Origin: Macrostomum hystrix | Lineage: Eukaryota; Animalia; Platyhelminthes | Assembly (NCBI GenBank): GCA_950097015.1 | Contig: CATNEN010000007.1 | Coordinates: forward strand, 4,402,001 to 4,466,000 | DNA length: 64,000 nucleotides | Direction: 5' to 3' | Shown: piece by piece, positions 3,533-42,007 of the stretch | How positions within the stretch are numbered: the first letter of the stretch is position 1 | How the letters are laid out: every line of letters starts with the position of its first letter | Position numbers and translations under genes: made by a program | Notes under the pieces: generated by a model | The model's input: only the letters and a program-made list of their open reading frames with translations | What the model was told of the DNA's origin: nothing | Databases searched by the model: none

Positions 3533-4493
3533 CTAGTCTCCAGTGAGCACCTCTGGGTAGACAACGTTCCTGGTCGTGGTTCCAGACAACCGGACCCGGA
3601 CATTTGCTACATTTTCGCTCGAGACAGCGCAGTATATAACTGGCCGTGCGCAAAGCATCCAACCGCCAGGTCGATGCCGACTGTCTCCAGGCTCTGCCCC
3701 TGAGACTTGTGAATCGTCAGGCAAAAGCTGGGCTTCACCGGAAACTGCAGCCGCTTGAAGCAGACTGGTAGGTCAGCATTGTTGGGCTGTAGGGGAATCC
3801 GCGGCAGCAGGATTTCATCTCCAGTGAACTGGCCAGCAGCGACTTTGCAGCGCAGCACATTCTCGCCCAGCTCCAGGATGATCAGCCGGGTGCCGTTGCA
3901 CAGCCGTGGCGGGTTCAGATTCCGCAGCAGAACCAGCGGCATGCCCACCTTGAGCTTCAGAAGGTGGGCATGGAAATTCGGTGTATCCAGCTGATTCAGC
4001 AGCTCCGGAGGAAAGTGCGTGGCCGCATCCTCGTCAGCCACGCTGTCCACCGAGCGATACTCGCGCAGTTGGCATGGGAACATGGCCAGGCACTCGTTGT
4101 TGATCGCGTCAACCGCATCGTTGTAGGGCGCCAGGATGGCTCGGCTGGCAAAGTAGCTATCGCGCTCCTCTGACGCCTCGAACGAAGGGTACACGAACAG
4201 GATCAGCTCGGATAGCGGCGCCTCCGCCGAAATGACAATCTCGGCATGAAGGCGGACGGTGTCATCCGACTGATCAGCCAACCCAGAGCCGATCTGTGTG
4301 GAATGGGCAGGAAAATGCAAGAGAATCGCAGGCTACACAGGTGATCTACTCCTACAAGCAGCAATAGCAAAACTTACCTGCATGAGCAGCTGCATATAGC
4401 GATGGTACAGCTCAGCATCAGCACAACTCTGCAGTCGGATGTTCTTGGAAAGGCGGTGCCTCTGAAACAAAGATCACAGTGGGGACTTGCTAA
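3533..4493 (-). pseudogene. Helitron RepHel helicase 3' part (inverted near-identical copy of ~14847-15804)
   Basis: Motifs KLKVGMP..LRNL, NGTRL, TIHKSQGQSL and HGQLYTALSR. Shares the same intron as the right copy. 1-bp frameshift near 3610. Confidence 0.95.
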
Positions 4494-4739
4494 CCCGATG
4501 AATTTTGATAGCCGCCGTGGTGGGTTATTTACGGCTCATATGAGAAGCTTGACCAGTATTTGCGCAGTTTTTTTAGCAGTTTGGACCGTGTTTAAGAATT
4601 TTAGAGCCACCTGTGCGGGTGAAGTGTCTAAAGTGTGTAAAAAGTTGCGCAAAAGTTGCTTAACTTTTCAGCGGCTCTCGAGGCTAACGCGGCCTAAAAG
4701 TTGGTCATATGTTTTTGATGGCTCAAGCACGTTTAAAAA

Positions 4740-9120: not shown

Positions 9121-11019
9121 ATGGCACCCAAAAAAACAACATGCGATCTCTGCGGGGCTGCGCCACCTGCCCTTTCCTGCCGCACTTGCAAGAAGAAGTT
9201 ATGCGAGCCTTGTAGTGCTGTGACGCACCGCCATCCTGAAAGGCAGCGGCACAGGCCGCTCGCGATTGCCGATCGCGATGGCGATACAGTGCAGCCAACC
9301 GCCACCACCGTGCCGAAGGATGTGACATCGGCCAGACTGGCACGGGAGGCTTCGGCTTTGGACTCTGGCCCCTCCTTCGCGGCAGCCCCAGCTCCGCCTG
9401 TCCCCTCTGTGCCCGCCCAAGCCCCTCCGCCTGTCCCCTCTGTGCCCGCCCAAGCCCCTCCGCCTGTCCCGCCCGCCTTGTCTGCTCCCCAACCGCCAGC
9501 ATCGCCAGCGAAGAGGCGGCGTCAACTGCCAACGACGGCTGCGGCTTTCTCAATACCAGGTGGGTCAGAGCAGCAGTACTGGCTCGTGCAGTTTCTGCCC
9601 CAGCGCAGTTTCCGAGCTGTGCAATCCTATCGAATTGCAACAGCAGTTCCCCCCCGGGGGCTACAAGCGCTGGTCGGAGGTTGAAGTGTATTGCGCCCCA
9701 ACCATCAGCCCCACAACTATAAGTCACCGCGCAGTACTCTTTAATGGTCCCTTCGCATCCTACTCCATTGCCAAGACGCACGAGCAGCTGTGCCGTAACC
9801 TGCCTCCCGATCCGGTTTCAGTGCAGCCTACTTGCGTGCAGTGCAAGCTGCGAGACGCTCAGCTGCTGGAAGCTCGCAGTGCTGCCGCCTCACTGCGAGA
9901 TACGGTCAGCCGTACTGCAGCTGAAGCCAGTCAGCTGCGAGATGAGCTGGCAAAGTCTATTGCTGTACAGGATGAGCTGCGGGGCGAGATCGATCGCCTG
10001 CGCAGTGTCATCGACGAACTGCATTCGGAGCAGCAGCGCGACAGCGCACATTTGGCCAACGGACTGGCATCCGTGGCTGCGCTGGTGGAACAGCTCCGAG
10101 CTGTTCCTGCCGGGAAGCTCGGCAGCCGTGGCGCTTGCGCTGCAGATGATTCTCAGCCTGCCCAGCTGCCCAGCGACCTCTTCGACCTTGCGCTGACTCC
10201 GATCAGCCAGGGAGTCAGTGACTCCGGAGTGACTGCAGGATCCTGCAGTCAGAAGCCAGCTGCAGCCCGTTCTGCCACCAGCTGCACCCAGCGGCTCATG
10301 TCTGGCAGCTCGGTTTTGGTGAGGAGGCAAAAATATTTCGCCAGTATTAAAAGCCGTCCTTGTCACCACTCCTTGTCATCTGGGTCTTCTCGCAAAATAT
10401 CTCACAGGTTACCCCGGCAGGCTGGTCCCTTCTTGCAGCCGCTCTGGCCGAGTATAAGGCCAACAGGACAGATGCCACTCGCCGCCTTTTGATACGCAGA
10501 CTGCTGCAGGCCGTATTTTCCGAAGAGGAGATTCGGTCCTGCACGTACAAGGGCAAGAGCCGCGGAGGTGAAGGTCGTATGGCCGCACCATTCGACAAGC
10601 GGCAGGCCGTCTCCAGCTACCTGCTGAGCGAGGCTGGCTTGTCAAAGTGCGAGCGGGAGGTGCATGATATCTTCCGGCGCCTCACGGAGACTCACCGCCG
10701 TGCCCTCCGCCCGCCTACCAGCACTCCAAAAAAAGGCAAGGGTGCCGACGCAGGCGCAGTGGGAGCCGCTGACGCTGCAGCCGGAGCCGCTGCCGACGCA
10801 GCCGGAGCCGCTGCCGACGCCTCTGGAACCGCTGCCGACGCATCCGGGGCCGCAGCCGACGCAGCCGGAGCCGCTGCCGACGCCTCTGGAGCCGCTGCCG
10901 ACGCATCCGGGGCCGCAGCCGACGCAGCCGGAGCCGCTGCCGAAGCAGCCGGAGCAGCCGTTGTTGGTGATTTTGAAGAAGAAAGTGACGACGGGTCAGA
11001 TGAGGAGGCCATGGACTAA
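9121..11019 (+). CDS. B-box zinc finger + coiled coil + BEN-domain protein (one 1-bp frameshift; one intron)
   Basis: N-terminal CDLC..CRTC...LCEPC...HRH...H B-box. One extra C in the C7 run at ~9650 separates the two frames. Phase-0 GT-AG intron 10319-10407 fuses ...LMSGSSVL|VTPAGWSLL... to a BEN-like RLLIRRLLQAVFSEEEIRSCTYKG segment. Ala/Asp repeat and acidic tail. Confidence 0.65.
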
Positions 11020-13349: not shown

Positions 13350-15804
13350 CTATCCTGGCCTTTGAGGTAATTGCTCTGCTGTGATGTAGCTGTGATTTTA
13401 GCACTGCATTTAGTCTTGGCGGTCACTCCGATGCTCAAAAAATTTTCTCACTTTTGCCCAGGTGCACAACAGGTTTCCGGCGGTCATCCGACTTTGCGTG
13501 CACAAGGCGGAAGAGCAGCTTGTGTACTTCAACGAGCAGACCGCGGGCGCCAGAGCAAAGGTGCCACGAGACTCGACACTGACGGCCTTCTTCAAGCTGT
13601 GCCGCACTGACGAGTTTGCCCGCCTGCTGCTCTACACAGAGGTGCCCGGCTACTTCGTGTGGCACCCGAGTGCGAGAGAGTGGCGTCGAGCCAAGCAGGG
13701 CGCCAATGTCGAAGGACATCCCGGCGTGAAGCGCAACACCAACATTGCGCGGATGTACACGGTCAGTCCCAGGGCTGGTGACCTGTTCTACCTGCGGCTG
13801 TTGCTGCTGCATGTGCGAGGACCGACAAGCTTCGAGTCGCTGCAGACCGTGGCCGGCGTGCATTGTACCAGCGCCAAGGCCGCCTGCATGGCTCTCGGCT
13901 TGCTGCAGCACGATGATCACTGGCATCGCTGCATGATTGAGGCTGTCCAGAGCCGAATGCCGCGAGCTCTGAGGCACCTGCTGGCTGTCGCCCTCATCTG
14001 GGGCGAGCCAGACGACGGCGCTGATCTGTGGAGCAGCTTTGCAGAGGATCTCTGCGAAGACCTGCGCTTCCACCACCCGGACCTGAGCGCCGAGGAAGTC
14101 AGCGACCTGGCTCTGCGGGAGCTGCAGAGCATGCTGACGTCAATGGGTGGCCGCAGTCTGCAAGAGTACGGACTGCCTGCTGCCTCTGCAATGCCGCAAA
14201 TCGGGCCGCTGCAGTTTGACACGGTCGAACAGGCGGAGATCACCGAGATGCGCCTGCCAATGCTCACGGCCGAGCAGATGGCCACCTACGAGGCTGTGAC
14301 TGCGGATCTTGTCGCTGGCTCGGGCGGCCTGCATTTCCTTGACGCTCCGGCAGGCACTGGCAAGACCTTCCTGCTGGAGGTTTTGCTGGCGTTTGTGCGG
14401 AGTCGAGGGGAAGTCGCCCTGGCTGTTGCGTCGTCTGGAATCGCAGCCACCCTGCTGCCGGGTGGACAGACGGCACATTCAACGTGAGTTTTCTGGTGGA
14501 ACTCGAATGCCCTTTTCGTGTTCTACCCAGACCATTCAGCCCCCATTAATATTTTCGTTAGGTTCAAGATCCCAGTGCGGCTGGTTCGCTCTGACAAGGA
14601 CGTGTGTTCAATCCGAGCGCAGTCAAAACAGGCCGCAGTCTTTCGCACTGTACGGCTGATCGTCTGGGACGAGATCTCCATGACAAACCGCAAGGACCTG
14701 TAGGCTGTCGACCGCAGTCTGCGAGACCTGCGGAAGCAGGACTGCCCATTCGGCGGAATCGTCGTGGTGTGCTCTGGAGACTTTCGCCAGCTGCTGCCGG
14801 TGGTGAAAAATGGCACGCGCGCTAACAACATCCTGGCGTGTGTGAGCAAGTCCCCACTGTGGTCTTTGTTCCGGAGGCACCGCCTTTCCAAGAACATCCG
14901 ACTGCAGAGTTGTGCTGATGCTGAGCTGTACCATCGCTATATGCAGCTGCTCATGCAGGTAAGTTTTGCTATTGCTGCTTGTAGGAGTAGATCACCTGTG
15001 TAGCCTGCGATTCTCTTGCATTTTCCTGCCCATTCCACACAGATCGGCTCTGGGTTGGCTGATCAGTCGGATGACACCGTCCGCCTTCATGCCGAGATTG
15101 TCATTTCGGCGGAGGCGCCGCTATCCGAGCTGATCCTGTTCGTGTACCCTTCGTTCGAGGCGTCAGAGGAGCGCGATAGCTACTTTGCCAGCCGAGCCAT
15201 CCTGGCGCCCTACAACGATGCGGTTGACGCGATCAACAACGAGTGCCTGGCCATGTTCCCATGCCAACTGCGCGAGTATCGCTCGGTGGACAGCGTGGCT
15301 GACGAGGATGCGGCCACGCACTTTCCTCCGGAGCTGCTGAATCAGCTGGATACACCGAATTTCCATGCCCACCTTCTGAAGCTCAAGGTGGGCATGCCGC
15401 TGGTTCTGCTGCGGAATCTGAACCCGCCACGGCTGTGCAACGGCACCCGGCTGATCATCCTGGAGCTGGGCGAGAATGTGCTGCGCTGCAAAGTCGCTGC
15501 TGGCCAGTTCACTGGAGATTAAATCCTGCTGCCGCGGATTCCCCTACAGCCCAACAATGCTGACCTACCAGTCTGCTTCAAGCGGCTGCAGTTTCCGGTG
15601 AAGCCCAGCTTTTGCCTGACGATTCACAAGTCTCAGGGGCAGAGCCTGGAGACAGTCGGCATCGACCTGGCGGTTGGATGCTTTGCGCACGGCCAGTTAT
15701 ATACTGCGCTGTCTCGAGCGAAAAATGTAGCAAATGTCCGGGTCCGGTTGTCTGGAACCACGACCAGGAACGTTGTCTACCCAGAGGTGCTCACAGGAGA
15801 ATAA
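13350..15804 (+). pseudogene. Helitron RepHel, 5'-truncated (end of Rep domain + PIF1 helicase), spliced
   Basis: Exons 13350-13366, 13462-14483, 14562-14958, 15043-15804 with frame-preserving GT-AG introns. Motifs RMYTVSP..GDLFYLRLLL, LDAPAGTGKT, VWDEISM, GDFRQLLPV and HKSQGQSL. Premature stops at 14701 (TAG) and 15520 (TAA). Confidence 0.95.
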
Positions 15805-17080: not shown

Positions 17081-17187
17081 TATTTTATATTTTATAAATA
17101 TTTTATTTATATTTTATAATATATAATGTGTCATAATTTATAATGTGATACATTGATTGTACAATCAATACATTGATTGATTAATTG

Positions 17188-17708
17188 ATTGGAAACAAGA
17201 ATTTATTGTCGTTTCTTATTTCTGCCGCTTTGTTTAAAGATTCGTTCAGATCGACATTACGTATAAGTAGTACTTGCTCTCCTCCGTGTCTAGATTTAAT
17301 TCGGTTTAAGAGACCTCTTGAGACAACTCAATGAGAATTATTGTACGTTGTTTTCAAGGCGAAATTTTAACAGAGAAATTCAATAGGAGAAAGCATTAAA
17401 ACTGTACTGTTGAGCACTGCAAGTTTAGTGTGTGTTGCTTCTCGGTCTGATGTATCACTCTTTTTTTTTATCGTAAGTCCAAGCTGTAGTCTTCTGTAGT
17501 AGTCTAGCAGTTTATTCGCAGTGTCGATGGCATGAAGGCAATAACTAAGTATGACTATCAACTCTTTCAAGTAAGGCAATGATCTATAACTATTCTAGAT
17601 CGGAAACTACTGCGATCAGAGTTTAAGTCAGGAACTAACGTGGAAAACAATGTCTTATGGATTAAAGTGCAATACTAACGGGGCTCGAGTCTTAGCTCTC
17701 GAGTCTTC
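17188..17708. repeat. Segmental duplicate of 35021-35537
   Basis: Near-identical ~520-bp block. Confidence 0.95.
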
Positions 17709-19408: not shown

Positions 19409-19440
19409 AAACATTGTAAAAACAATGTTGTATAAACATC

Positions 19441-20368
19441 TGTTGTGAGCTGCGTCTCATAACGACCTTGCCCCGGCCCCTGCGTCTCCAGCCCTCACCC
19501 CAGCGCGCTCAATCCGGTTCTGCCCGGCCCGCTTAGGCCACCCTCCGTTGGCGTGGTTGTCGTTGTCATTCGCCCATTGGCTGTCCCCTGTGTGCCGTCC
19601 TCGGCTAGTCCAATCAGGCCTCTCGCCAAGGAGGCTTCTGATTGAGCCGCCGGTCTCCTTCTCCCTCTCTCTCGGCTGCAGCCGACCCCAGCCCATGCCC
19701 TGTTTTGCTACCACCCCCAGCCCCTGCGTGGCTTAGCCCTACCCCGTCCAGCCCCTATGCCCCTCGCCCCCACCCCACGCGGTTATTTATTTGCGCGCTG
19801 CTGCCCGTGGCCAGCCCGCGCGCAGCTCGGCCCAAGAGTACTGCCTTTGAGAACGCTGTCTTGAATTAGGAGCAATAGCTTAAATAGGAGGTTAGGCGCG
19901 AACGATTGTTATAGAATACATTACGCAGCCTGAGGACACTTCGATGATATGAGTTCAGCGTTCAACCCCTCCCGGTAAGAAAAGCATTCACGCCGTTATT
20001 TATTTTCTTATTATCGACTCTTGTTCCTCTGCCCAACCTCGGCTGCTGCCAAAAACTCACCCATCATCTTCTCCTCCAGAGTCTTCCTCGAGGTCTGCGA
20101 AGTGTCGGTACGCTTCCAGACCATCATCTACCTCTCTCTTGGGCTGTCGAGTGGCTACCCGCTCGCAGTCAAAACCTTCAGTCAGGGCTTAGCGGAAGTG
20201 TCGGTACGCTCCAAGTCCACCCCGTCTCCTCCTCGGAGTGTCTGGACGGCCTCGAGGGTTCGCTGCTTCCCCCCCCTCTTACCCCCGGCAAGCTTTGGGC
20301 GGTCCGGCTACCAGAACCCCCCACTACCGCGTCTGGCGAACTGCCGACAATACGAAAGAATTACAACA
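19441..20368 (+). repeat. 5' LTR (928 bp)
   Basis: TGTTGTGAGC...TTACAACA; matches 29084-29989. Confidence 0.97.
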
Positions 20369-20369
20369 T

Positions 20370-20387
20370 TGGCGCCCGAACGGGGAC
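20370..20387 (+). promoter_or_regulatory. Primer-binding site for tRNA-Lys(UUU)
   Basis: TGGCGCCCGAACGGGGAC; 17/18 identical to the classical tRNA-Lys3 PBS TGGCGCCCGAACAGGGAC. Confidence 0.85.
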
Positions 20388-20415: not shown

Positions 20416-21454
20416 ATGGCGAATGTAGACGAGGTTGATCGGATTGCTGGCAGAGCGGCTGCGTGCCGATGGACCAGCTCAGAATCCGAGACTGCCGAAG
20501 CCAGTAAAGTACACGCCGAATTTGAACTTCCGACTATGGCTGCGATCCTTCAATGCGTACTGCGACTCGGCTGGGATCGATGAAGCACATCGACGGGATC
20601 ACCTTCTAAGCATGCTCGATCTGTCTACCGCGTACGCCGCTGTCGATAATCTGAACCTGCCTGGTCCCGGCCGACGGACAATCCGCTGACCTACGAGGAG
20701 TTTACTGACCGACTGACAGCTCGCTTCTCGCGCTACCGGACCGACCAAGACAGCAAGGTCGAGCTGAAGACCCGGGACCAGAAGGATGGCGAATCGCTGG
20801 AGTCCTACGCGGACGCCCTGCTGGAATTAGTGCGCTGCGCCTACCGACGGCCACCGCCGAGCTACAGGACGGACCTCGCCAAGGACCGCTTCATGCAAGG
20901 GGTGAGGCTCTCGGACCCTCAGCATGAGAAACTGTACCTGGAGCAGCCTAATGACCTCGTAGAGGCGCAACGGGTGGTCCGACAACTCGAGGCGGCCTCC
21001 AAGGCAGCGAAAGGACCGCGGCCAGCCGGAGCGATTGGAGGTGGGCACCGAGGAGTCTTTGTTGTCAGCGACGCCAATAGTTCAGCGCACCAAACTGGCG
21101 GAGCCTGCTACAGAGATCGCGACAAGGACAAAGAGCTGGAGGAACTTCGGAATCAGCTGAAGCAGCTTCAAGGCAAAGTAGTGCCAACTGGAATCGCAAA
21201 GGAGCACGCCAAACCTAGAGACATCATACCGACCTACGGCGCAATCATTGGAACCTACTCAAAAGGGGACAGCTGGAGCTGGCAGCGGCCGGGAGCAGCA
21301 GCGCAACGTCCATGAGCCAGCGCCGAGCACCGGGATCCGCTGCTTCCTCTGCAAGCGCCCAGGACACATTGCTGCCAACTGCCCAAGCCGAGGACAGTCG
21401 GGAAACGCCAAGTGGGACTTCCGCAGGGGCCAGGATGTCCCACCACGCCAGTAG
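20416..21454 (+). CDS. gag: Gypsy gag (frameshifted)
   Basis: LWLRSFNAYC...; KDRFMQGV; zinc knuckle CFLCKRPGHIAANC; several 1-bp frameshifts. Confidence 0.85.
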
Positions 21455-21499
21455 CAGCCCCGCAATGTGGACAAGCAGCTTCTGAACACTATCCGTCAT

Positions 21500-24400
21500 C
21501 AAAACAACAAAGAAGCTGCCGACCGAGAGTAGAACCACCTGCGAGAATATTCCATCCTGTATCTGTCTACGTGTCTGTCAAGATTGCTGAAAAAGAACTA
21601 CCGGGTCTACTGGATTCCGGTTCTGTGATGTCCTTAATCAATGAGAAGACCTGGCTACAATTGAACAAGTCGGTAAAATTAGAGCTCAGCCCGCTGGACA
21701 CCGACCTTGTCTCTGCTAATGGGACACCAATGAAAGTTCTGGGATGCGTCTCGCTGCCTCTACAGATGGGTCATGAGGTGCTGCACACTCCCATAGCTGT
21801 TGTCCAAGGAGTCGGTTACGAGCTGCTGCTGGGCACCGACTTTCTGCGTCGCCATGGATGCCTAATTAACTTCGCCGAAGGAGTCTTCATCGTCAATGGC
21901 TCAAAAATTCCGATTCGCGAGACCAAACACAAACCCGTGGTGTGTCGGCTGTATCTAAACGAGAATATCGTCATACCGGCTAACCACGAGATGACGGTCT
22001 CAGCCAAGATTCGCAGACGGCTACTCAGAATTCGGGAGTGCTAGGATTAGCTGAACCCGACAATCGAACGAGAAGCGAAGAACAGCCTCTGATGGCCAGA
22101 AGCATGTGCATAATTCAAGCTGGCAACACCCTGCCGGTGCGCTTCGCTAACGTCACCGACACGGAACTGCGTCTGCCCAAGGGCTCTACCATCGGCTGGT
22201 TCCGTCCGGCAGAACCGACTCAAGAGGTGCTGGCTGTCAGCGTTGATGAAGGAGTTCCAGTCGCAGAAGCTAAAGTTAAAAGTAGCGACCGATGGGATCC
22301 GGAAGCAGCACTGAACGAGCACGGATCCAAGCACTTAACTGACGTCGACCAAGTCCAGATTCCTAAAGCTCGTTAGCGAATTCTCTGATGTCTTTGTGGA
22401 GAGCACGCGCAGCTTCGCACAACCGAAGTAGTTCAACACGAAATCGAAACGAAAGGAGACCCCGTCAAACAAGGCTCCAAGGACGGCTCCCACCCCACTG
22501 GCGAGGGGAGGTGGATCGGCAGATCGACGAACTGCTTGCGACGGACAAGATCGAACCGACACAGTCACCATGGAGTTCACCCATCGTGTGCGTCAGAAAG
22601 AAGGATGGTGAACTCCGCCTGTGTGTTGACTACCGAGAATTAAACGATCGTACAGTCAAGGATGCGATTGCCATTCCGCGCGTTGACGACGCTCTAGAAG
22701 CACTGAAGGGCGCTGTGGTATTCTCGACGCTAGACCTTTTTTCTGGCTACTGGCAGGTCGCAGTTAAGAAAGAAGACCAACACAAGACAGCATTCGTCAT
22801 TCCGCACCGAGGTCAGTTCGCTTTTAAGGTTCTTCCATTTGGCCTGACTAATGCACCGGCAACATTCACCAGACTGATGAGCATGGTGCTGCACGACTTC
22901 CTCTGGAAAACAGCGCTAGTGTACATCGACGACATCATAATCTGGTCGAGGACAGTCGACGAGCACTTCAACCACCTGGAGGCAGTCCTGCATCGACTAA
23001 GAGCAGCCAATTTAAAGCTGAAGCCATCTAAGTGTAGATTTTTGGCAGATCAAGTTAAATTCTTGGGACACGTAGTGTCAGCGGCGGGTATCAACACCGA
23101 CCCAGAAAAAATTGAGGAAGTAGAGAAATGGAGCACGCCAAGAAACATCAAGGAGCTCCAATCCTTCCTAGGCCTCGCTGGCTACTACAGGAACTTCATA
23201 CCGCAATTCTCGTTGATCGCAGCACCACTGTTCGACCTCACAAAAAAGGACAAAATGTTCATCTGGGGCCAGGAGCACGATGGAGCATTCGAGCGTCTAA
23301 AGAGCGAGCTTGTCGGATGTCGCGTCATGGCCTACCCAAACTTCGACGCCGATGCTGGAGAGTTCATTTTGGATACGGATGGAAGCACCCGTCAAGGGCT
23401 TGGCGCTGTCCTGTCTCAAGTGCAGAAGGACGGTACCGAACGAGTTATCGCCTATGGCAGCCGACGTTTGCACGGTGCTGAGTTTAACTACTGTACTACT
23501 CGCATAGAGCTGCTCGCACTAGTGACTTTCGTAGAAAAGTTCCGGTATTACCTCCTAGGCCGACGATTTCGCGTCAGAACCGACCACTCCAGCCTACAAT
23601 GGATTAGAACTATGAAGCAACCTGAAGGGCAGCTAGCTCGATGGATGGAGAGACTGGCGCCATTCGACTTCTCAGTGGAACACCGAGCAGGAGCCCGCCA
23701 TCAGAATGCCGACTCATTGTCACGCAAACCGACGCGGAAGCATCAGGAGATAGAAAGCTGCCCATCGTGCAAGCCGCCAAAACCGCTAGAAGTTCGGGCC
23801 ACTACCCTGTTGGGAGTCGTTAACAAGGAGGATCTCGAAGCAGCGCAACAGGCAGACGACGATATCGAGCCGGTACTCAGCGCTTTCCGGAGAGGAATTG
23901 TACCGGACCAGGTGCCGCAAGGGACCTCACCGAAAACTAGAGCCATCTGGGCACAAAAGTCTCAGTTGGAGCTGCGAGACGGCGTGCTCGTCATGCGAGA
24001 ACTCGGTCGACATCCCGCACGACCAGTACTGCCGAAAAGTCTAGCCGTCGAAGTTCTGAAAGCACTGCACGCTGGACCTGAAGGAGGACACTTTGGGACT
24101 GCCAAGACCTTAGATAAGATCAAGAGTCGGTTTTGGAAGCCCGGACTCAAGAGAGAATTCGAGGAGTACATTCGTCGATGCGACGACTGTAATCGAAGCA
24201 AGCCGCGGATGCGTCGAAAAGCTCCCCTAACACCGATTCCGAGCAGCCAGGTATTCGAGAAGGTCATGGTAGACGTAGTTGGACCGCTCCCGACAAGCAG
24301 AAGAGGCAAAAAGTACATCCTGACGATGCAAGATGCCTACAGTAAATGGCCTGTCGCGATTCCAATCCCGGATCAGTTGGCTAGCACCTGCGCGAAAGCG

Positions 24401-25381
24401 ATGTTCGATGAGTGGGTTTGTCACTACGGAGCTCCAGGAACGATTCATTCCGACCAAGGAGCCAACTTTGAGTCACAACTGATCAGCCATCTTTGTGCTA
24501 GTTTAAACATTAGGAAGACTCGCACGACCGCCTATCACCCTTCGGGAAACGGCCAAGTGGAAAGCTTCAACAAGACGCTGGCAACGGTAATTCGAGCTAA
24601 CCTAGCCAATGAACCGGATCAGAGCCGATGGGATGATTTCGTCGCACCGACACTCCTGGCGTACCGCTCCAGTGTACATCGAGGCACCGGATACACACCG
24701 TTTTTCCTGCTGCATGGGCGGGAGATGAGTTTACCTGTGGACCTTGGTGCGACGCGGCCGCCTGACGTCGAACCGTACTGTGAAGAAGTGCAACGCCTGC
24801 GGGAGACTCTAGAAGCAGCCCATCAAGAAGTGCGGGAAAGGGCAAAGTCGTACCAACGAGTGCAAAAGGATTGGCATGACCGCCAGGTTAGAGGACGCGA
24901 ATTGGAGATAGGCGATGAGGTCTATGTCTATGACCCAGTCCTGAAACCAGGAGCCAAGTCCAAGCTTCACTCCCCCTGGACGGGACCATGTGTTATTCTG
25001 GACAGGCTGACGGAGACGCGTTACCGAATTCGCCAGGAGGGAAGAAGGAAGCCCACTAAAGTCGTGCACTTTAACAATTTGTTGCCGAAGTACAAGAAGG
25101 AGTCCAAAGACAACGCTGGACGGAAGCAGCGTGCTCGACGCGGACCGCAACCGGAGGAGGAGGCTGGGCAGGTAGACGAGAATCGAGACGAGCAAGACGA
25201 GGAAGAGCAAGAAGAGCTGATGGAAACTGGATATCAGTGGCGGCGCCGAGAACCAGTGCAAGCCGAGGAGCCGGAGGATGTGCAACCGGATGCCCCGGAC
25301 CTGGAGCCTGGTCCAGCCAGGGAGCGACCACGGCGACACTGCCAAGCCCCCCAACGCTACGGAGCGCCCGTCTACTACTAA
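21500..25381 (+). CDS. pol: Gypsy pol (protease, RT, RNase H, integrase) with frameshifts in the 5' part
   Basis: LLDSGS protease; PWSSP..VRKKDGELRLCVDYRELN; YIDD; DTDGS RNase H; H..GHFG..C..C and DDE integrase; PWTGP (GPY/F). 997-aa open stretch at 22388-25381. Confidence 0.95.
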
Positions 25382-25444
25382 GCCGATTAACACTAAGGCT
25401 CGGCCGACGGAAGCCGATGCTGAGTTATGAAGAAACCAACATTA

Positions 25445-25645
25445 ATGCACCACCAATGCGTCACCAATTCACCACGAACGCGTCATCAATTCATCACGAA
25501 TGCGTCATCAATGCACCACCAATGCGTCATCAATTCATCACGAATGCGTCATCAATGCACCACCAATGCGTCATCAATTCATCACCAAGGCATCCACAAT
25601 GCATCATCATGTGGCCGCTACCATCATTTGCGTCATCAATCTCCC
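25445..25645 (+). repeat. About 22-bp tandem repeat containing TGCGTCA, between pol and ORF3
   Basis: AATGCGTCATCAAT(TCATCACG/GCACCACC) repeated about 6-7 times. Confidence 0.85.
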
Positions 25646-25737
25646 GACTAGCCTAACGGGTACCCCTATCGCCAGCTATTCTATCAGTGCGGTCGCCTAC
25701 CAGATAGCGTCCCTACGATTAGCGGTCCAAGCCCCAA

Positions 25738-28560
25738 ATGCACCCACCCGACGAAAATGCGACCTGCGACCCAGGGTTCAGCGACCTCGAGGCTGCAGAA
25801 CGATCCTATCCAAAGGTTTATATAGGGGGCCGGTGCCGTTTCAGGCATTGCTTTCCCGGGCTGGACCTCTATGGCGAGTTCGGAGTTTCCCCGTTCGCGA
25901 CTGCGGATGAGTTGCGTCGTGCGTACCGGCGGGAGAGTCTGCGCCGACACCCGGACAAGTGCGGACCGCAGGGCACTGAGAGTTTCCAGAAACTCCAACA
26001 TGCGAGTGCTATTTTGCTATGTCCATTTCGGCGAGCGCTGTATGACCGGTTCGGCCAGGAGGCGGTCTCGGACCCAATGACGTGTGCGAAATACTTTGTT
26101 TCTCCGGACGGGATGCAGGTCCCAGAAGAGTTCGTCATCAATGTCGACTCACAGTCTGCGAGTTCTAATGAGGATGGCGAAGGCTTCTCGGAGGACCGGA
26201 GCAGCGAGCTCGATGAAGATTTGCCAGACTACGAGGCCAGGCGCGCCTATGATTGGACGCAGCCGGAAGACAGCGAGCTCGGTGAAGATTTGCCAGACTA
26301 CGAGACCAGGCGCACCTATGACTGGACGCAGTCGGAAGAGGACGAACTCCTAGACGACTCGACGGAGGACGCTGAGATGGTACCCGACGAGCCGCCGGGA
26401 ACATCTGAAGTCGGACCGGCAGTGGTTTCAGCTGTGGCCTGCGCGACTGACTCCAGCAGGTCGGAAGAAGAGCCTTGGGTTGGCGATGCAGCTCGGGAGA
26501 GGCTGCGTTTAAGAAAGCGAACCCAGCGCAACATCCTACAAGGAAGTTCAGCCGCCACGTTCCGCACGCTGGTAAAAATAGCCGCGCTGTGCCACTTGGA
26601 GCGGCGGGATCATCGGACAGAAATCACGATGCTCCTGACCCAGGTCCTGATGTTTATCAGTCGAGACGTCAGCAAAAAGTACCGCGGGCACGCCAAGCGA
26701 ACCTGGCAGCGGCAGGCCTTCGAACGCAGCGCCAAGTTCATCGCAAGTGTCGCGATCCCGACGTTTGAGCTGCGCAATGGAGGACGTCTTTCTTTCTTTC
26801 TTTCGTTTCCAGGGCGCGCCCGATCCGGAGTACCGATAAGGGCGGGGGCGCTAGAGGCGCCCCATACTGCGCAGGAGCTCGACGACCGCGGCCGGGTTCT
26901 CCATCAAGTTCTCGGCCGGGATTCCGCGTAGGGCTCGGTGGCGGTCGCCTCTTGGACAGTGGAGGACGACGTGGTCGACACTGTCCACCTCGCCGCAATC
27001 GGGACACAGCGGGGACGCGTCGACACCGAGACGGTAGCGGGTCTTTCTATCGACCATGCTGGCGCCCGCGCGAAGTTGGTTGACCAGGACCTGTTGCTTC
27101 CGCGGCAGACCCTGGGGCGGGCTCCAGAAAGGGCCGACTGCTATGATATCCAGGGCGCGCCGGCAGCGTCGGGTGGCTGCTCTGGCGGCGTCCAACTGGA
27201 TCGGGACCTGACTTTGGTCTAGTTTTGCCGCCCTGGCCGCCGCCTGATCGGCGGCCTCGTTGCCGGTAATACCGCAGTGGGCCGGAACCCAGCAGAAGCC
27301 AATCTTGGTGCCTAGCTCGATCAGGTCCAGAATGAGCTGCCAGCAGTCGGCTGCTACTGAGTCCCTCTGCCTAAGTGGCCCGGCGCTCAGGGTCGTGATG
27401 GCGCTCAGGCTGTCGGTGGCGATGGTGATGTCCGGGGGTCTGTCTGCCGCGGTGTTGCAGAGGCGGAGGCCCTCTCGGATAGCGGTGAGTTCGGCCGTGA
27501 AGCTGCTGCATAGGGCGCCCGCCGCAGACATGCGGGCTGCCTCTGGTGGAAGCCATTGTGCGACTGCTGCTCCCCCGCCGTTTCTGCAACCGTCCTGTAC
27601 CGAGCCGTCGGTCCAGATGACGTGCTCCGTGAGACGGGACACGGTTGGTTCGGCGAGGGCGGCGCGAAGTTCTGCTGGCATTTGTCGGGTTGCTTCTTTG
27701 GCGGCCGATGTGTCGAAGCGGACTTCTAGGCTTCTGCTGATGGTCCACGGTGCTGGGCCGATTGCCGTTGGTGCTCTTGGGTGGGCCTCAAGCGTGTGCT
27801 GCATTCCAGCTCTTGCGCGATGCGGCGCCAGCAGGCGCGGTACGGGCGGTTGGCATCCGAGAGCGCGTCCGGGATGCGTTCCCCGCGCTGGCCGTCGTTG
27901 GCCCGGTTCTTCATTGCGGCTTCGTAGGTCCGGTTTTTGAGTCTTGGTCGCTCGTTCGCGGTTGCTGCTTGGTGCGCTGGGATGTCGGCCGGTAGTCTGG
28001 CCATCCTCTCGCGGAGGTTGCTAGCTCTTTCCGCGGCGATGTGGTGGAGGGGCGGCAGGTTGGCGACGGCCAGCAGTTTGTCCGTCCGAGAGGGCATCAC
28101 GCAGCCGGTGATTAGGCGTGCACACGCGTTCTGCTGCCTCTCCACAAGTGCCCGGTTGCTTGGTGCTGCGCTCGTTAACCAAATGGCACTGCTGTAGTCC
28201 GCAATGGAGCGGCAGGTTGCGATGTAGGCTGCGCGCAGTGTTTTCTGGTCGGCGCCTGTTTGTCTGTCTGCGAGCATCTGGATCGGTCGGCGTCTAGCTG
28301 CCATTTTTCGTCTGACATCCTTGGCATGCTCTCCGAAACCGAGGTGGTCGTCGAATTTGACCCCTAGGAAGGTCGGGTTCGCCTCGAACCGCAGTGGGTC
28401 TCCGTTGATGTTGAGGTCGAGTCTTATCTTGCCTCTGTTTTCGGCCGGGGATAAAGTGAAGGTGCTGTAACTGCACTTCGCGGTGCTGAGCTCGACTTTC
28501 CATCTCTTTGGAGGACGTCTGCTAGGGCTGCTGCGTAGCGTGGCTTGGGCGGCCGTGTAG
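25738..28560 (+). CDS. ORF3: intronless DnaJ J-domain protein (363 aa once the LINE insertion is removed)
   Basis: DLYGEFGVSPFATADELRRAYRRESLRRHPDK...FQKLQHASAILLCPFRRALYDRFG is a J domain with an intact HPD motif. Joining 25738-26789 to 28521-28560 restores the frame to a TAG stop. Confidence 0.85.
26790..28508 (-). mobile_element. 5'-truncated non-LTR retrotransposon with RNase H (Ingi/I-group-like)
   Basis: RT thumb (AYIATCRSIADYSS), RNase H (WTDGS..AEL..TDSLS..WVPAHCGITGNEAAD), C-terminal CPDC..H..HC, (GAAA)n tail, 12-bp TSD TGGAGGACGTCT at 26778-26789 and 28509-28520. Confidence 0.93.
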
Positions 28561-28860: not shown

Positions 28861-29083
28861 ATAGTGAGACCAGTTGATGATCCTATTTGGCGGGCACATC
28901 AAGCACATCGAGACACCTCCTGTCGGACGACCTAGATCCATTATGTACTGTATGCGGCTAGCTATTACATGCTGTGGAATTGCCATGGCATACCATTTTT
29001 TTGACAATTTTCCATTACCTACTGACAATAATCATTGCTATCGTGTTTTTATGGTGCTACGGTCATTTTTTTGAGGGGAAGAG

Positions 29084-29989
29084 TGTTGTGAGCTGCGTCT
29101 CATAACGACCTTGCCCCGGCCCCTGCGTCTCCAGCCCTTCCACCCCAGCCGCCTGCTCAATCCGGTTCTGCCCGGCCCCGGCTTAGGCCACCCTCCGTTG
29201 GCGTGGTTGTCGTTGTCATTCGCCCATTGGCTGTCCCCTGTGCCGTCCTCGCTAGTCCAATCAGGCCTCTCGCCAAGGAGGCTTCTGATTGGCTAGCCGG
29301 TCTCCTTCTCTCTCTCTCTCGGCTTGCAGCCGACCCCAGCCCAGCCCTGTTTGCTACCACCCCAGCCCTGCGTGGCTTAGCCCTACCCCGTCCAGCCCTA
29401 TGCCCTCGCCCCACCCCACGCGGTTATTTATTTGCGCGCGCTGCCCGTGGCCAGCCCGCGCGCAGCTCGGCCCAAGTACTGCCTTGAGAACGCTGTCTTG
29501 AATTAGAGCAATAGCTTAAATAGGAGGTTAGGCGCGAACGATTGTTATAGAATACATTACGCAGCCTGACACTTCGATTGATATGAGTTCAGCGTTCAAC
29601 CCCTCCCGGTAAGAAAAGTATTCACGCGTTATTTATTTCTTTATTATCGACTCTTGTTCCTCTGCCCAACCTCGGCTGCTGCCAAAAACTCACCATCATC
29701 CTTCTCCTCCAGAGTCTTCCTCGAGTCTGCGAAGTGTCGGTACGCTTCCAGACCATCATCTACCTCTCTCTTGGGCTGTCGAGTGGCTACCCGCTCGCAG
29801 TCAAAACCTTCAGTCAGGGCTTAGCGAGTGTCGGTACGCTCCAAGTCCATCCCGTCTCTCCTCGGAGTGTCTGGACGCCTCGAGGGTCGCTGCTTCCCCC
29901 CCTCTACCCCCGGCAAGCTTTGGGCGGTCCGTACCCGAACCCCCACTACCGCGTTGGCGAACTGCCGACAATACGAAAGAATTACAACA
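29084..29989 (+). repeat. 3' LTR (906 bp)
   Basis: Matches the 5' LTR with many small deletions. Confidence 0.97.
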
Positions 29990-30294
29990 CATCGACATCA
30001 CAGTATGCAAAATAGCACGTTATCAATTAATGGAATTTAATGACAACTAATGAGTTTAATAATTGCTTTGTAAATACTTATTTTCAAAAACAGGAAAGAT
30101 GATGGATTTGCAGAAGGCTCCGCCAACAAGACAGTATCATTGCACAGTTCATTGCATTTGACTGCAAGAATAATGGTTTCAATCCTACTTCTTGTTGGCT
30201 TGATTTACTCTGCACTGCTGGTCAGAGGCATTCACTGGGGCAAGTTAAGTTCACGCACTAAACGTCACACAAAAAGATTAGCTATCACCAGGTG

Positions 30295-32165: not shown

Positions 32166-32478
32166 GGCCGTCGACGTCGACGATGGACCCGGGGCGGTCC
32201 ATCCGCAGGATGCTATTTCTGCGGTGGGCCGCACTGGGTCATCCGATGCGACCGTATCAGGGCCGTCGCCCTGGCCCACCAGCAGCAGGTGCAGTAGCAG
32301 CAGCCGCCACCGCAGCAGCAGCAGCAGGTGCAGCAGCAGCAGCCGCCACCGCAGCAGCAGCAGCAGCTGCAGCAGCAGCAGCTGCAGCAGCAGCAGCCAC
32401 CGCAGCGGCTGCAGCAGGCGCAGAACTTAACAGCAGCAGTTGCCCGAATGGGTCTGACGGCTGCAGTTCCGCCGCCGC
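32166..32478 (+). pseudogene. RG-knuckle-polyQ gene copy, 5'-deleted
   Basis: GPSAGCYFCGGPHWVIRC intact, but no ATG and one CAG>TAG stop. Confidence 0.75.
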
Positions 32479-34690
32479 GCGCTCTGGACCCCGGGGACGA
32501 GAGCTGCTGTCCCTTCTCCGAGCGCGAACTCGAGGCGGCGCTGGCGCAACAACGCCCATACGGAGCTGCCGGACCGGACGACATCTCGCCGAGGTTCCTG
32601 AAGGCGCTCGGCCCGAAAGCCCGCACGGAGCTGCTTGATGTTTTCAACCAATCCTGGAGCCAAGGCCTCTGCGCCCAAGCGTGGCGCAACGCCAACATAA
32701 TCCCGCTGCTAAAAAAGGGCAAATCAGCCGGTGACTTGGCTTCCTTCCGGCCAGTCAGCTTGACGTCGTGTATGGTCAAGATTCTCGAACGCCTCATTGT
32801 CACCCGCCTCAGTCACCTGGTGGAGTCGCGAGGCTGGATCTCGCCGCAGCAGGCTGGTTTCCGCAGGCTGCGCAGCTGCGAGGAACTCATTCTTGCGGCG
32901 GTGCAGCACATTAGCGATGGCTTTCAGCACCAACCCATGCTGAGGACTTTGATGGCCCTCCTAGATTTCAGCAAGGCTTATGACTAAGTCTGGATTCAAC
33001 GGCTTCTCGCCACTCTTCTCAACAAAGGCGTCCCGGGACCATTCGTTCGCTGGGTCAACGCTTTCCTTTCTAACCGTCAGGCTAGAGTGTGCATTAACGG
33101 CGTCCACAGTCGCTTTCACCGTATGCGCCAAGGCCTACCGCAGGGTTCTGTCATCGCGCCTCTTCTGATCGTCCTTTTTCTGGACCCAGTGGTGTGCACC
33201 ATTCCGGCCGAGGTGAGCCCGTTGCTTTACGCGGATGACATCGCTCTCCAATGCCAGCATCGCTGCGCGGCCACCGCTCTTGCGCACCTTCAGTATGCCG
33301 TGGACAAGGTGGCTGACTGGATCAAGGCCAACAAGATGACGCTGAACCCGCTAAAGAGCGAGTGCGCTTTTTTCTCGACTAATACCCACGAGGCGTCCTT
33401 CAAACCCTTTAAATTCTTCAAAAATTCAGCTGTGTGGCAGCATGATCCCGTTTAACGATAGCCCGCGGTTCCTGGGAGTCTACCTCGACCGCACCCTCGC
33501 CTTCACCTCGCCTTCACCTCACGGGATCAACTCTGCCTCATTGCTTACGAAAAAGCGCTGCGCCTGCCGCATGATCACCCGCGCTACCTGGCCGCGTCCG
33601 CTCAGGTGCCGCACCGATCCGTAAGGAGCAGCTGGCGCCACAGAGCGCAGCAGCTTCTGGCAAGTACGTTGGGCCTCCTGGCAATCCGCGATCCTCTTCC
33701 CCCTGTGCCGCAGTGCCCGTGGAGCGACAGCAGCGCCCTAGCGCCCATCACCTCGAGCTCTCGCGGCCCCCTCCCAACGAGCCCGAGGGGTCGGACCCCG
33801 GCAATGACACGCAGCTTCGTTTGGCGGCCGAGGACACGGTCCGCAGCGCAGCCGCGGCGCTAGTGATGTTTACTGATGGCTCAGCGGGCGGCGGCGTCAG
33901 CAACGGCGGAGCAGCTTGCGTGGTCACCCGGGGCGACCCTGCCGCTCCGGAGGTCCTGGAGGTCCTCTCCAGCAGAGGAGCGGCGGCGACCTGCAGCTTC
34001 GACGAGGAGCGCCGCGCCCTCGGCCTGGCCTTTGCCTGGCTAGCCGGGCGGCCAGTTAATGGCCCCATTCTCATTTGCACCGACAGCCGTGCACTGCTTG
34101 CCGCCCTCTCCAACTCCAGGCCGTCCGGCGGTCTTCCGAAGACGCCCGCCGGCCGACGATCGAACTGCAGTGGGTCCCGGCACACTGCGGCCTTCGCGGC
34201 AACGAGTTGGCGGACGCAGCTGTCAAGCTGGCGGCGTGCTCCGGCGCGGTCTCTGCGGCGGTGTCGCTGGCCAGCGCAGCGGCGTTTATCCGGCGAACTA
34301 TTTGCGATCCGCACATCGGCCGCACCACCACCTCGGATGTCTACAGAGGCCTCAACCGGGAGCGGGACAGCGCCGAAATCACCAGTCGGCAGGATGCTGT
34401 GCTGCTTGCCCAGCTGCGCTCCGGCCATTGCAGCAGGTTGCACGCTTATGGCTGCATAGTCAATCCGTTGGCGGACCCGACCTGCCCGCATTGCCAGGAC
34501 GAGCCGCAGGACTTGCAGCACTGGCTGCATTGTCCGGCTCTTCGCCCGGCTCGCACAGACATTTTCGACGGAGAAGACAACATTCCTCTGGAGACCCTGA
34601 CCGTCGCCCCGGCGAGGTCGTTGGCGCTGGCGAGGAGGAGCCTCTTCTGAGGGCCTCTTCGGCGCCCGTGCCCACCAACAACAACAACAG
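32479..34690 (+). mobile_element. 5'-truncated Ingi/I-group-like non-LTR retrotransposon (RT + RNase H + CCHC), decayed
   Basis: AGPD; SFRPVSLTSC..K..ER; QAGFR; LDFSKAYD; GLPQGS; YADD; RNase H FTDGS and WVPAHCGLRGNELAD; CPHC..H..HC; (CAA)n tail; stops and frameshifts. Confidence 0.9.
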
Positions 34691-34966: not shown

Positions 34967-35889
34967 ATTTGAATTTGAACAGTTTCTTTCCATAAATATA
35001 TTTGATTGAGTGATTTATTTATTGGAAACAAGAATTTATTGTCGTTTATTTTTGCCGCTTTGTTTAAAGATTCGTTCAGATCGACATTACGTATAAGTAG
35101 TACTTGCTCTCCTCCGTGTCTAGATTTAATTCGGTTTAAGAGACCTCTTGAGACAACTCAATGAGAATTATTGTACGTTGTTTTCAAGGCGAAATTTTAA
35201 CAGAGAAATTCAATAGGAGAAAGCATTAAACTGTACTGTTGAGCACTGCAAGTTTAGTGTGTGTTGCTTCTCGGTCTGATGTATCACTCTTTTTTTTGAT
35301 CGTAAGTCCAAGCTGTAGTCTTCTGTAGTAGTCTAGCAGTTTATTCGCAGTGTCGATGGCATGAAGGCAATAACTAAGTATGACTATCAACTCTTTCAAG
35401 TAAGGCAATGATCTATAACTATTCTAGATCGGAAACTACTGCGATCAGAGTTTAAGTCAGGAACTAACGTGGAAAACAATGTCTTATGGATTAAAGTGCA
35501 ATACTAACGGGGCTCGAGTCTTAGCTCTCGAGTCTTAGCTACCGGGCAGCTCCCGCGCCCCGCTCCATCTTATATAATGTGCTCAAACCCCTCTTTTCCG
35601 AGGGGATGGAAAAGCCTTAGCAACAGAGCGCAAGAGAATTTGTGATGAGTGGGGTCGCAGCCCCGAGATTAGTACACGGTTTCTCGGTTGGCAGGCTCAC
35701 CAACCCCGGTCCTAAGGAGGGTGGGGCAAAGGCCTAAAAACTCATCTCCAGATAGAGTCCGGGCCCGCTCCGCCTCCTCCCGTGGTTACCTCTAACCTCT
35801 CTGCTTTCAGTTGCTTCGCCATTAAGCTATTGCTATTTTCAGCCTACCTCCTAGAGCTCTCTTGAGTTCCTTTCAGATTTCTAAGTCTT

Positions 35890-38755: not shown

Positions 38756-40139
38756 TACTCAGCAACAGCTAAACCCCCCCAACTTACGCTGTCACACGGC
38801 CTAAAAGTTTTGTATGCCATCGGTGACTCAGAAATGTGTGAAGGCTGCCGCCGCCAGACGCGAGCGCAAAGTGCGGCATGGGGGATTTGGGAAGGGGGTG
38901 GCGCAACTCAACCCACTGGTGGCTGCATTGCGCAATGGTAAACCATGAGTAGTTAAAGAGGAGGGTGCAAATCAATATTACTTGAATTTGGCACAACAGC
39001 ACACACCACAGTGAAAACCTGCAGCGCATGCAGACCATCAAAGCCATGGTGAGACAAATGTCTGAAGGAGAGAAGTGGCGAGCCATTGGAATGGCAGAAG
39101 CCGGCAGCTCGTGCAAAGCGATTGCACATGCCTTTGGCTGAGCGCCGAAAACAATTCGCACGCTTCTAACAAAGTGGCGCATGAGTGGCAGTGTTGCTCA
39201 TGGACACCGCCGTCGAGTGCGTTGTCAAAAGACTCCCAGGGCGGACAGACAGTTGATTTGACTAGTGCGAGCAAATCGAACTCTGCCGGCAACATTGTTG
39301 CGACAGCTGTGGCATGAAAGAGGTGAACGAAGGCAATTGCTGAGCTCCGAGACTGTCAGGCGCAGAATCAAGGAGACACCGCTGCGTTCTAGGAAGATGA
39401 GAAAGCGACCGCGATTGTCTGCTGCTCACGTGACAGCAAGAGAGCGTTGGGCAATGCAACGTGCACATTGGCGCCTGCAGCAATGGCGGAGGGTGATCTT
39501 CACTGATAAGACAAGGTTTCACCTGTTCTGCAGCGACGGCCGTATGCGAGTTTGGCGTCAGCCACAGGAGGAGTTCCTGCCCGACTTAGTGCAGCCGGCC
39601 GACTCACAAGGTGCACGCCTGGGCTGGCATCGCACTGAATGGCAAAACAGAGCTTGTCATTCTGGAGCAGAATGTAACTGGGCAGACCTATGCAGAGCTG
39701 CTACAGCAGCAGTTTCGGCTATTTGCTACGACAACCTTTGGCGGCCCGCAGAACTGCATGCTTTAAGACGACAACGCTGCGCCACATCGAGCAGCACACG
39801 TGCAGCTGCTGAAGGAGACGCTTGGCATTCGCACATTGAACTGGCCGTCAAAGTCTCCAGACATGAACCCCATCGAGCATGTCTGGGACTTTGTAAAGCG
39901 AAGAGTTCAGCAGGATGCCTCACAGAATACTGAACAGTTGCGACTAGCGGTGCTGAATGCCTGGCAGCAGCTGCCTCAAGAGTTTATTAACCGGCTGGTG
40001 ATCAGGATGCCACGACGAGTCACGGCACTTTCGCATGCTCGTGGTTCCTATACACGATACTGAGACTAGAATTAAAGACATTGCTTAACTTTTGTGCCCG
40101 TGTGACAGCGGAGTTGGGGGGTTTAGCTGTTGCTGAGTA
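38756..40139 (+). mobile_element. Tc1/mariner (DD34E) DNA transposon, defective
   Basis: About 53-bp TIRs TACTCAGCAACAGCTAAACCCCCCAACT..., TA TSDs. Transposase 39046-40063 with IFTD, DDNAAPH and WPSKSPDMNPIE (34 residues between D and E); 3 stops and a frameshift. Confidence 0.95.
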
Positions 40140-40512: not shown

Positions 40513-41640
40513 TTATCTTTCATTATACTGACTAGATGTATTAACATAGCTTTCCTTCTGAGTAACTCGCGGCTGCTTCTGACTGCGGCTCTGATCGTTG
40601 TTGCTGTTGTTGTTCTTCTTCCTCTGAGCCGTCTTTTTCTTTGGTCGCTCGTACCGCTTTTTCGACTGAGATTTCCATACCTGCGGACCTTCAGTTGGTG
40701 TTCCCTGTTGACCTCCTGTTCCTCCGGGGCTTCCCTGGTTGCGTCCTCGACCGTCTCTGATCCTACAGTCTCTCTGGGTGTGCCCTCTCATATCACATAC
40801 TGTGCAGTATGGCGCATTTCGGCATTCCTTCGCGATGTGTCCCTTCCGATCACATCTATAACACTTTACCTCGGTGTTATTGAATTCCCTCACGCTTCTC
40901 CTCTCTGCTGAGGCTCGTTGCGCTGATAACAGGACCGTGCCTTGTGTCCTCGCTTCCCACAGATCTGACAGATTATCGGCTTCATTCCTTGTCCGGTCCG
41001 TCGATCCAATCCAGTCCTTCCAATTTCCTTGGCCTTGCTGTCTATAATGGCCCTGTGGGTTCCACGGTCCTTGTTGCTGTGTCGTTACCGCAGCTATCTG
41101 GCTCGGTTGCTGTTGAGGTGTCTCCAACTTGGCCTGAAGCTGTGCGATGAGGTGCGTCAGCTTTTTCGTTAGATCAGTCTCCTTATCTGCGGCCTGCAGT
41201 GCCTGCCATTTGATGGCCTCGCGCACTATCTCCGGCACTGTATTAAACCGGGCTCTAGCGAGGAATGATTTTAGGGACGGTACTGCGTTCTGCTGCGCGT
41301 ACATCATCACTGCGTCTTGGATTATCCTCCTGTTCGTCTCCATTCTCTGGTTTCTGGCCTCCTCTTGTTCTCCTTGGACCGCTGGCTGCTGATATACAGC
41401 ATTCTCTACCAGTCGCTGTATATCAGCGATGAATCTATTGATGCCCTCTTCTGGGCGCATCTTTCTCATGGCGAGCTGCAGGTTCGCCGCTCCCCTATTA
41501 TAGACGCGGACATCAAACAGGTTTCTCAGCGCTTGTATTAAGCGGGTGTAGTCATCCCTCACTGCCTGTTCTAAGCTGCTGTACTGGTTCCGGGCGTTGT
41601 CTCTCAGCAGCAGGGGTAGTATTCTGGCTTTTTCTGGGTT
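40513..41640 (-). mobile_element. gag: Orphan LTR-retrotransposon gag fragment with two CCHC knuckles
   Basis: EKARILPLLLRDNARNQYSSL..DDY..L..AL; CYRCDRKGHIAKEC and CTVCDMRGHTQRDC; truncated at both ends. Confidence 0.8.
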
Positions 41641-42007
41641 ATACAAATAAATAAATTTGTATTTATTTTTACTCTGGAAAATGTATGTTATGCTACAACA
41701 GGTAATTTATGCGCATTTTGTTGATGTATTCATGCACATGTATTCTACGAGACTCCAGCTCGTGGTGGGACTTTCCACTATGGCCAAAGTTATAATATAG
41801 CCAAGTGCACGTTACATTCGCACTGAAGCCATGAAAATATTGAACTTGAAGTGGAAAGTCCTGAATGATGTCTTTCGTCTTTTTATTTCACTAACGCTAA
41901 CAATGTTAACAGTACAGTAGTGATTAAAATTAACTGTCTTAATAATCTTGACAAAGTGGGAAGCCTTTAATTTCAAGTGAGTATTTAACTGGGTAGGAAA
42001 TTACTTA

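Follow-up and report, generated by a model that had tools for sequence, protein, structure and literature searches.

The window analysed here, 64,000 nucleotides of the flatworm Macrostomum hystrix (assembly GCA_950097015.1, contig CATNEN010000007.1, positions 4,402,001 to 4,466,000), contains a Ty3/Gypsy long terminal repeat (LTR) retrotransposon that carries a third open reading frame (ORF3), encoding a J domain, between pol and the 3' LTR. Self-comparison of the window gives one LTR pair, at 19441-20368 (5' LTR) and 29084-29989 (3' LTR), both starting with TG and ending with CA. The pair is flanked by the 4-bp target-site duplication CATC on the left (19437-19440) and on the right (29990-29993), as a preliminary description of the locus had reported, and this flanking duplication argues against the LTR pair being a chimera of the assembly, a possibility that the same description had raised. 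The 5' LTR is followed by a primer-binding site (20370-20387), which we take to be of the tRNA-Lys type, and by a gag and aspartic protease region (20416-22044), in which the Pfam family Retrotrans_gag stays below its cut-off and gag-asp_proteas exceeds it; the frame of this region is broken several times in the assembly, and there are several single-base length differences from short-read contigs. Pol (22367-25381) contains by Pfam reverse transcriptase (RT), RNase H and integrase (H2C2, core and p58 C-terminal domains). A spacer with tandem repeats of an 11-base unit (25418-25631), which differ in length among copies, separates pol from ORF3, and a polypurine tract (29073-29083) precedes the 3' LTR. 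Apart from the target-site duplication, these features lie on the forward strand. With the protease-RT-RNase H-integrase order characteristic of Ty3/Gypsy, paired TG...CA LTRs, target duplication, primer-binding site and polypurine tract, the element is a genuine Ty3/Gypsy LTR retrotransposon insertion.

The insertion is young, since the LTRs differ by only 7 substitutions in 893 aligned bases (0.8%). They differ by a further 44 indel bases, 32 of which adjoin an identical base, a pattern that looks like long-read error. Neither LTR has a single site resembling the canonical heat-shock element with one mismatch allowed. Among the matches listed, the nearest pol is a Macrostomum lignano protein with 79% identity over 64% of the searched region, and two further M. 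lignano pols are 54% and 51% identical to that of the window. The RT-RNase H tree comprised 58 sequences, namely the window pol and those of the hits P0003-P0060 that aligned over more than 330 residues; a further 62 listed hits were excluded. Six sequences form a clade here (support 0.99): the window pol, three M. lignano proteins and two JGI proteins. The Lys-type primer-binding site and the 4-bp duplication would fit Osvaldo, of the Gmr1/Osvaldo cluster; the tree itself places the window pol only with the M. lignano and JGI proteins.

The open frame from the ATG at 25738 matches Pfam DnaJ at residues 43-103 with 49 bits (cut-off 27.8) and an intact HPD motif, confirming the J domain of the preliminary description and placing ORF3 among J-domain proteins by sequence. 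The J domain proper (25861-26046, forward strand) opens with a CTG where relatives have Met and carries a family signature, LxCP[FY]RR. PF00226 is the only Pfam family that matches ORF3; there is no G/F region, zinc finger or DnaJ_C domain of the kind that defines class A and B Hsp40 proteins, and the predicted ORF3 protein is by its layout a class C J-domain protein. Two predicted short helices follow, and then an acidic linker predicted to be disordered (together 26047-26484, forward strand). The acidic unit is indeed duplicated (26203-26262 and 26272-26331), and among the members compared only this element has the exact duplication of 23 residues. The frame continues into a basic helical C-terminal domain, which extends to the point where a long interspersed nuclear element (LINE) breaks the gene (26485-26789, forward strand). 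The stretch RERLRLRKRTQR at 26494-26529, described earlier as resembling a nuclear localisation signal, is present; it lies within the first helix of this conserved domain. The domain matches nothing in Pfam, NCBIfam, PHROG or the PDB sequences, in keeping with the earlier remark on an unrecognised helical region, and appears to be an unnamed, well-folded protein family. An env-carrying errantivirus was considered and rejected: ORF3 is not a fusion glycoprotein, as Pfam finds DnaJ only and the prediction is all-helical with an acidic disordered linker.

A HMMER search of 1.84 billion representative sequences returned 6090 matches at E<=0.001, of which the best 150 were listed. Three of these 150 align over the whole query (P0148, P0149 and P0152); P0153 has the same full layout and was joined via the C-terminal domain, and P0151 corresponds to the front half. 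Thus four proteins, 31-34% identical to ORF3, carry the J domain, the acidic linker and the basic helical C-terminal domain, and a C-terminal profile made without ORF3, from the four relatives only, recovers the window frame (62 bits, E 7.8e-18). In all five members basic residues prevail in the C-terminal domain (23-25 K/R against 8-14 D/E). Mean identity across the relatives is 52% in the J domain, 30% in the following helices, 26% in the linker and 33% in the C-terminal domain, and the pols are about 50% identical. All six aligned members keep HPDK and, past helix III, an unusual CP; P0151 retains HPDK too. In a further protein, P0296, a chromodomain recognised by Pfam (48.7 bits) separates the J domain from a weakly matching C-terminal domain (E 6e-4 with the five-member profile among 335 proteins); the chromodomain seems to retain two of the three aromatic cage residues at the HP1 positions. 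Two motifs recur in the linkers: YI-x-I followed by acidic or serine residues, resembling a SUMO-binding motif, in P0148, P0152 and P0149, and [DE]LPD with a downstream Trp in P0148, P0152 and the window.

We modelled relative P0152 with AlphaFold2 from five sequences. The model has a J domain (predicted local distance difference test, pLDDT, 83-90), two extra helices, an acidic linker modelled as disordered and, at the C terminus, five helices (pLDDT about 80-90), with a predicted template modelling score (pTM) of 0.42 for the whole; a single-sequence model of the window protein was of low confidence. In a Foldseek search the J domain of the P0152 model superposes on solved J domains at 1.0-2.5 A in most of the matches listed.

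In P0149 and P0151, which are M. lignano gene models, integrase sequence runs straight into the J domain, and the front of P0149 shows 93% identity with a pol family present in many copies in M. lignano, itself about 50% identical to the window pol. P0153 and the pol P0005 are both JGI proteins on 7008-base contigs and probably share one contig. In a tree of 155 J domains the five full-layout members form one clade (support 0.88), with P0151 and P0296 outside it in a weakly supported wider group. Of the 149 others, no host J protein lies within the clade, and no host donor emerged from the tree. The preliminary description had allowed for the capture of a near-identical host gene; among the best 150 matches, no other J protein exceeds about 57% identity to ORF3.

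The LINE is a 5'-truncated fragment of 1719 bp on the reverse strand (26790-28508), comprising the tail of RT, RNase H and a GAAA-repeat tail, and it is bounded by a 12-bp target duplication (left copy 26778-26789, right copy 28509-28520). Behind it, at 28522-28560 on the forward strand, stand 12 in-frame codons and a stop. The best ungapped placement of these codons is on the last helix in all four relatives, and the LINE therefore struck the coding sequence of this copy; the earlier calculation that its removal gives an ORF of 363 codons is arithmetically right for this copy. As it stands, the interrupted ORF3 loses its last helix and then runs into about 47 unrelated codons, and this copy is probably defective. 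A second LINE with RT and RNase H, at 32298-34650, is about 32% identical to the inserted one and is broken by CAG-rich repeats.

We compared the window with contigs of four sequencing runs, of which X1, X2 and X3 come from one study and are not independent, and X1 may underlie the assembly. X2 and X3 skip the LINE, X1 yields loose ends continuing into the sequence behind it, and X5 stops short. One X2 contig spans the end of pol, ORF3 and the 3' LTR without the LINE. ORF3 is thus present in other copies and not, as had been feared, confined to this one. An X3 contig departs from the 3' untranslated region at 28609 into LTR-like sequence, a deletion variant of the element.

Downstream of position 25817, the complete list of differences between X2 and the window ORF3 holds 7 silent and 6 replacement changes, none of them in the J domain, giving a ratio of replacement to silent changes per site (pN/pS) of 0.26-0.35 (P 0.017-0.05, depending on the transition bias). 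This weak excess of silent changes means that ORF3 is not plainly neutral, another doubt that had been raised. Among 12 listed differences in pol, a tool-chosen subset, 8 are silent and 4 replacement. The selection test consists of one pair with 13 changes, assembly errors possibly among them, and an equal 7/6 split is obtained with the mirrored antisense frame. X1 contains a diverged variant, about 90% alike and at depth 99, that skips 25655-26399, and with it the J domain and much of the linker, and resumes before the C-terminal domain. The J domain can therefore be lost, and this variant may represent a subfamily without it. Because the within-family comparison is single and small, the argument for selection leans on long-range conservation, and we regard it as highly probable that ORF3 is a real and old gene kept by selection.

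The preliminary description took ORF3 for an intronless frame initiated at ATG 25738, which is probably wrong. All three covering runs (X1, X2 and X3) have two bases fewer at position 25817, and it is therefore only in this assembly that ATG 25738 is in frame with the J domain. In most relatives Met stands directly before the J domain (P0148 has 14 additional residues ahead of it), and the codon aligned to this initiator Met is the CTG at 25861. ATG 25738 is probably not the true start. We predict that ORF3 is made from a spliced message with its donor in the LTR. Rough generic matrices rank the LTR donor GT at 19975 first among 339 GT sites; it is in phase 2, 26 bases past an ATG and found in both LTRs, and the short ATG-led frame at 19949-19980 (forward strand), identical in both LTRs, would be the first exon. 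Of the 21 AG sites that lie between pol and the J domain, the top-scoring one belongs to a putative acceptor at 25832-25845 (forward strand), with its AG ending at 25844, also in phase 2. Donor and acceptor would therefore join in frame, and the predicted intron would contain the two-base difference at 25817. Macrostomum employs spliced-leader trans-splicing too. Three points speak against the spliced message: the sites do not score above shuffled sequences (acceptor 1575/2000, donor 236/2000), agreement in phase arises by chance in one case out of three, and by frame arithmetic ATG 25757 opens into the J domain in the shorter copies, an unspliced alternative.

Elsewhere in the window, an inverted repeat of 883 bases, 99% complementary (3534-4494 and 14842-15803), bears PIF1 helicase coding sequence on both arms, with more at 13414-14484; these are Helitron-like pieces lying in inverted arrangement. 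A direct repeat of 536 bases, 98% identical (17172-17707 and 35005-35536), flanks the Gypsy element at a distance. A Tc1-like transposase fragment lies at 39262-39930 and a zinc-knuckle, gag-like ORF at 40516-41706. The open frame of 388 codons at 9326-10489 has weak coiled-coil-type Pfam matches only, and 59462-61015 on the minus strand is a long exon of a TCERG1-like host gene with WW and FF domains.

What might such a protein do for the element? J domains deliver Hsp70 to the target bound by the remainder of their own protein, and viruses encode class C proteins of this kind (PMC3486835). The target of ORF3 would therefore be set by its C-terminal domain, and the charge of this domain, with the chromodomain ahead of it in P0296, makes chromatin or nuclear RNA the likeliest site. 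We therefore lean, at somewhat better than even odds, towards ORF3 being an element-encoded Hsp70 co-chaperone that works on chromatin or element RNA inside the nucleus. A short LTR exon would be spliced to the acceptor just before the J domain to give the ORF3 message. The J domain would recruit host Hsp70, the basic helical domain would anchor the protein in the nucleus, to chromatin or to the RNA of the element itself, and the recruited Hsp70 would loosen host silencing or help the element RNA through. As this copy is cut, LINE-free copies would supply the protein. There are precedents: nuclear J proteins work on histones (PMC11775587), J proteins take part in transposon silencing (PMC8616336) and a spliced accessory protein exports Cer1 RNA (PMC10309623).

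Against the nuclear co-chaperone stand a number of observations. Helix II of the J domain has two unusual residues (RRESLRRHPD), although RAYRR agrees with human Hsp40. By Pfam, the ORF3 studied here has no chromodomain, and its C-terminal fold has no named match, the Foldseek matches listed being nearly all J domains. The SUMO-binding-like linker motifs are no commoner than in shuffles. As for residence in elements, the observed integrase link is that of P0149 and P0151, and P0153 is paired with P0005 by no more than a shared source and an equal length of 7008 bases. The J-less variant in X1 and the small number of changes behind the selection test also count against this reading.

The preliminary description had proposed a retrotransposon-encoded Hsp70 co-chaperone, for particle assembly or RT folding or else for counter-defence. 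Its structural side is well supported; particle assembly and RT folding gained no evidence, and the basic C-terminal domain and the P0296 chromodomain point rather to a nuclear role, nearer to the counter-defence option. We find it rather doubtful that ORF3 is a cytoplasmic co-chaperone through which Hsp70 reaches Gag, RT or integrase and helps the particle to fold, assemble or uncoat, or acts on the integration complex. Viruses do recruit Hsp70 for folding and assembly, with the J domain of SV40 T antigen serving capsid morphogenesis (PMC3486835), the basic C-terminal domain could bind packaged RNA, and a chromodomain supplied in trans could, judging from P0296, steer integrase. However, ORF3 has neither the substrate-binding domain of class A and B proteins nor a G/F region, most Gypsy elements replicate using host chaperones alone, and a chromodomain variant suits a nuclear site better than folding.

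A decoy that pulls Hsp70 from PIWI loading, or sends PIWI-pathway proteins to degradation, and so weakens PIWI-interacting RNA (piRNA) defence for all elements, is unlikely. It would fit with planarian DNAJA1, which binds and stabilises SMEDWI-2 (PMC11663942, citing Wang 2019), with the displacement of piRNA factors to lysosomes by Hsp70 in flies (10.1101/423210), and with the silencing of transposons by Macpiwi1 in M. lignano (PMC4604429). However, a general suppressor would aid competing elements and harm the host, and a mere Hsp70 sponge would need neither a conserved C-terminal domain nor a chromodomain. A later fly study, moreover, attributes heat-induced transposon RNA to transcription off neighbouring hsp70 genes and not to lost piRNA silencing (PMC12908455).

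That ORF3 is a functionless passenger, a captured fragment of a host DnaJ, is very improbable and already largely refuted: the copy is interrupted, a J-less variant exists and the within-family signal of selection is weak, but across relatives with only 31-34% identity the frames stay open, HPDK does not vary and a second domain is conserved, and no host J protein of the 149 others stands inside the five-member clade. We give equally little credence to a J domain devoid of Hsp70 activity and reused as a fold for other binding, for which the two helix II residues might speak, but HPDK is kept in all six aligned members and P0151, and the J domain in the P0152 model agrees with solved J domains as given above.

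Going beyond the nuclear co-chaperone, one may tentatively imagine that a flatworm Gypsy branch codes for an anti-silencing machine of modular build, in which the J domain summons Hsp70, the new basic helical domain identifies the locus or RNA of its own element, and additional modules, the chromodomain for instance, can be exchanged; the chaperone would then strip silencing complexes or nucleosomes from the element. We consider this possible, although clearly short of an even chance. The known systems nearest to such an arrangement each share a part of it. The non-env ORF3s of bdelloid rotifer elements (GDSL esterase, DEDDy exonuclease) are likewise captured cellular-type genes between pol and the 3' LTR, common to a branch of elements, and are typically expressed via spliced messages (PMC5408684). 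The cargo here differs, being a J-domain co-chaperone with an unnamed helical domain, and neither 'DnaJ' nor 'chaperone' occurs in the main text of that paper. SV40 T antigen, Rki of phage RB43 (PMC3486835) and giant-virus DnaJ proteins likewise belong to selfish elements and place an N-terminal HPD J domain on an unrelated C-terminal part, whereas ORF3 is encoded by an LTR retrotransposon, the likeness is confined to the J domain, and we infer its Hsp70 binding. A model for ORF3 is CERV of C. elegans Cer1 (PMC10309623), an accessory protein of an animal LTR retrotransposon that is made from a spliced message and acts in the nucleus on element RNA; the two are likened by description only, and the abstract of that paper mentions no J domain. 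DNAJC9/Djc9 (PMC11775587) and SILENZIO (PMC8616336) use a J domain to couple Hsp70 to histones and to methylated-DNA silencing complexes, respectively. Unlike ORF3, they are host genes, and SILENZIO promotes silencing; no likeness beyond the J domain was found in solved structures, where the region after it, the place of the histone-binding domain in DNAJC9, gave no match by sequence. The Ty3/Mdg4 families of M. lignano (PMC12801592) supply the closest pols (79%, 54% and 51%) among the matches listed. Heat-shock elements are described for their LTRs, in contrast to those here, and DnaJ is absent from the main text of that paper.

In the literature searched we found no description of a J-domain ORF in an LTR retrotransposon, in line with the preliminary description; most subscription papers, Repbase entries and the earlier M. 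lignano LTR classification lay outside the scope of the search. DnaJ does not appear in the available part of an env survey (PMC13524379), and PMC6338049 names other accessory domains. Captured third genes other than env are already known, and one that recruits a chaperone would be a novel form of them.

Transposon counter-defence proteins are known in plants, VANC21 and Evade among them (PMC8616336), and such transposon-encoded proteins are rare in animals. In hosts, transposon silencing draws on Hsp70 and J proteins, the stabilisation of planarian PIWI being one example (PMC11663942). The modular anti-silencing machine, if true, would be the first animal retrotransposon counter-defence based on a chaperone. 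Relatives of ORF3 occur in M. lignano, where transgenesis and RNA interference work (PMC12801592, PMC4604429), and the idea is thus directly testable. An element-borne J protein kept over such long divergence would show transposons turning the chaperone system to their own use.
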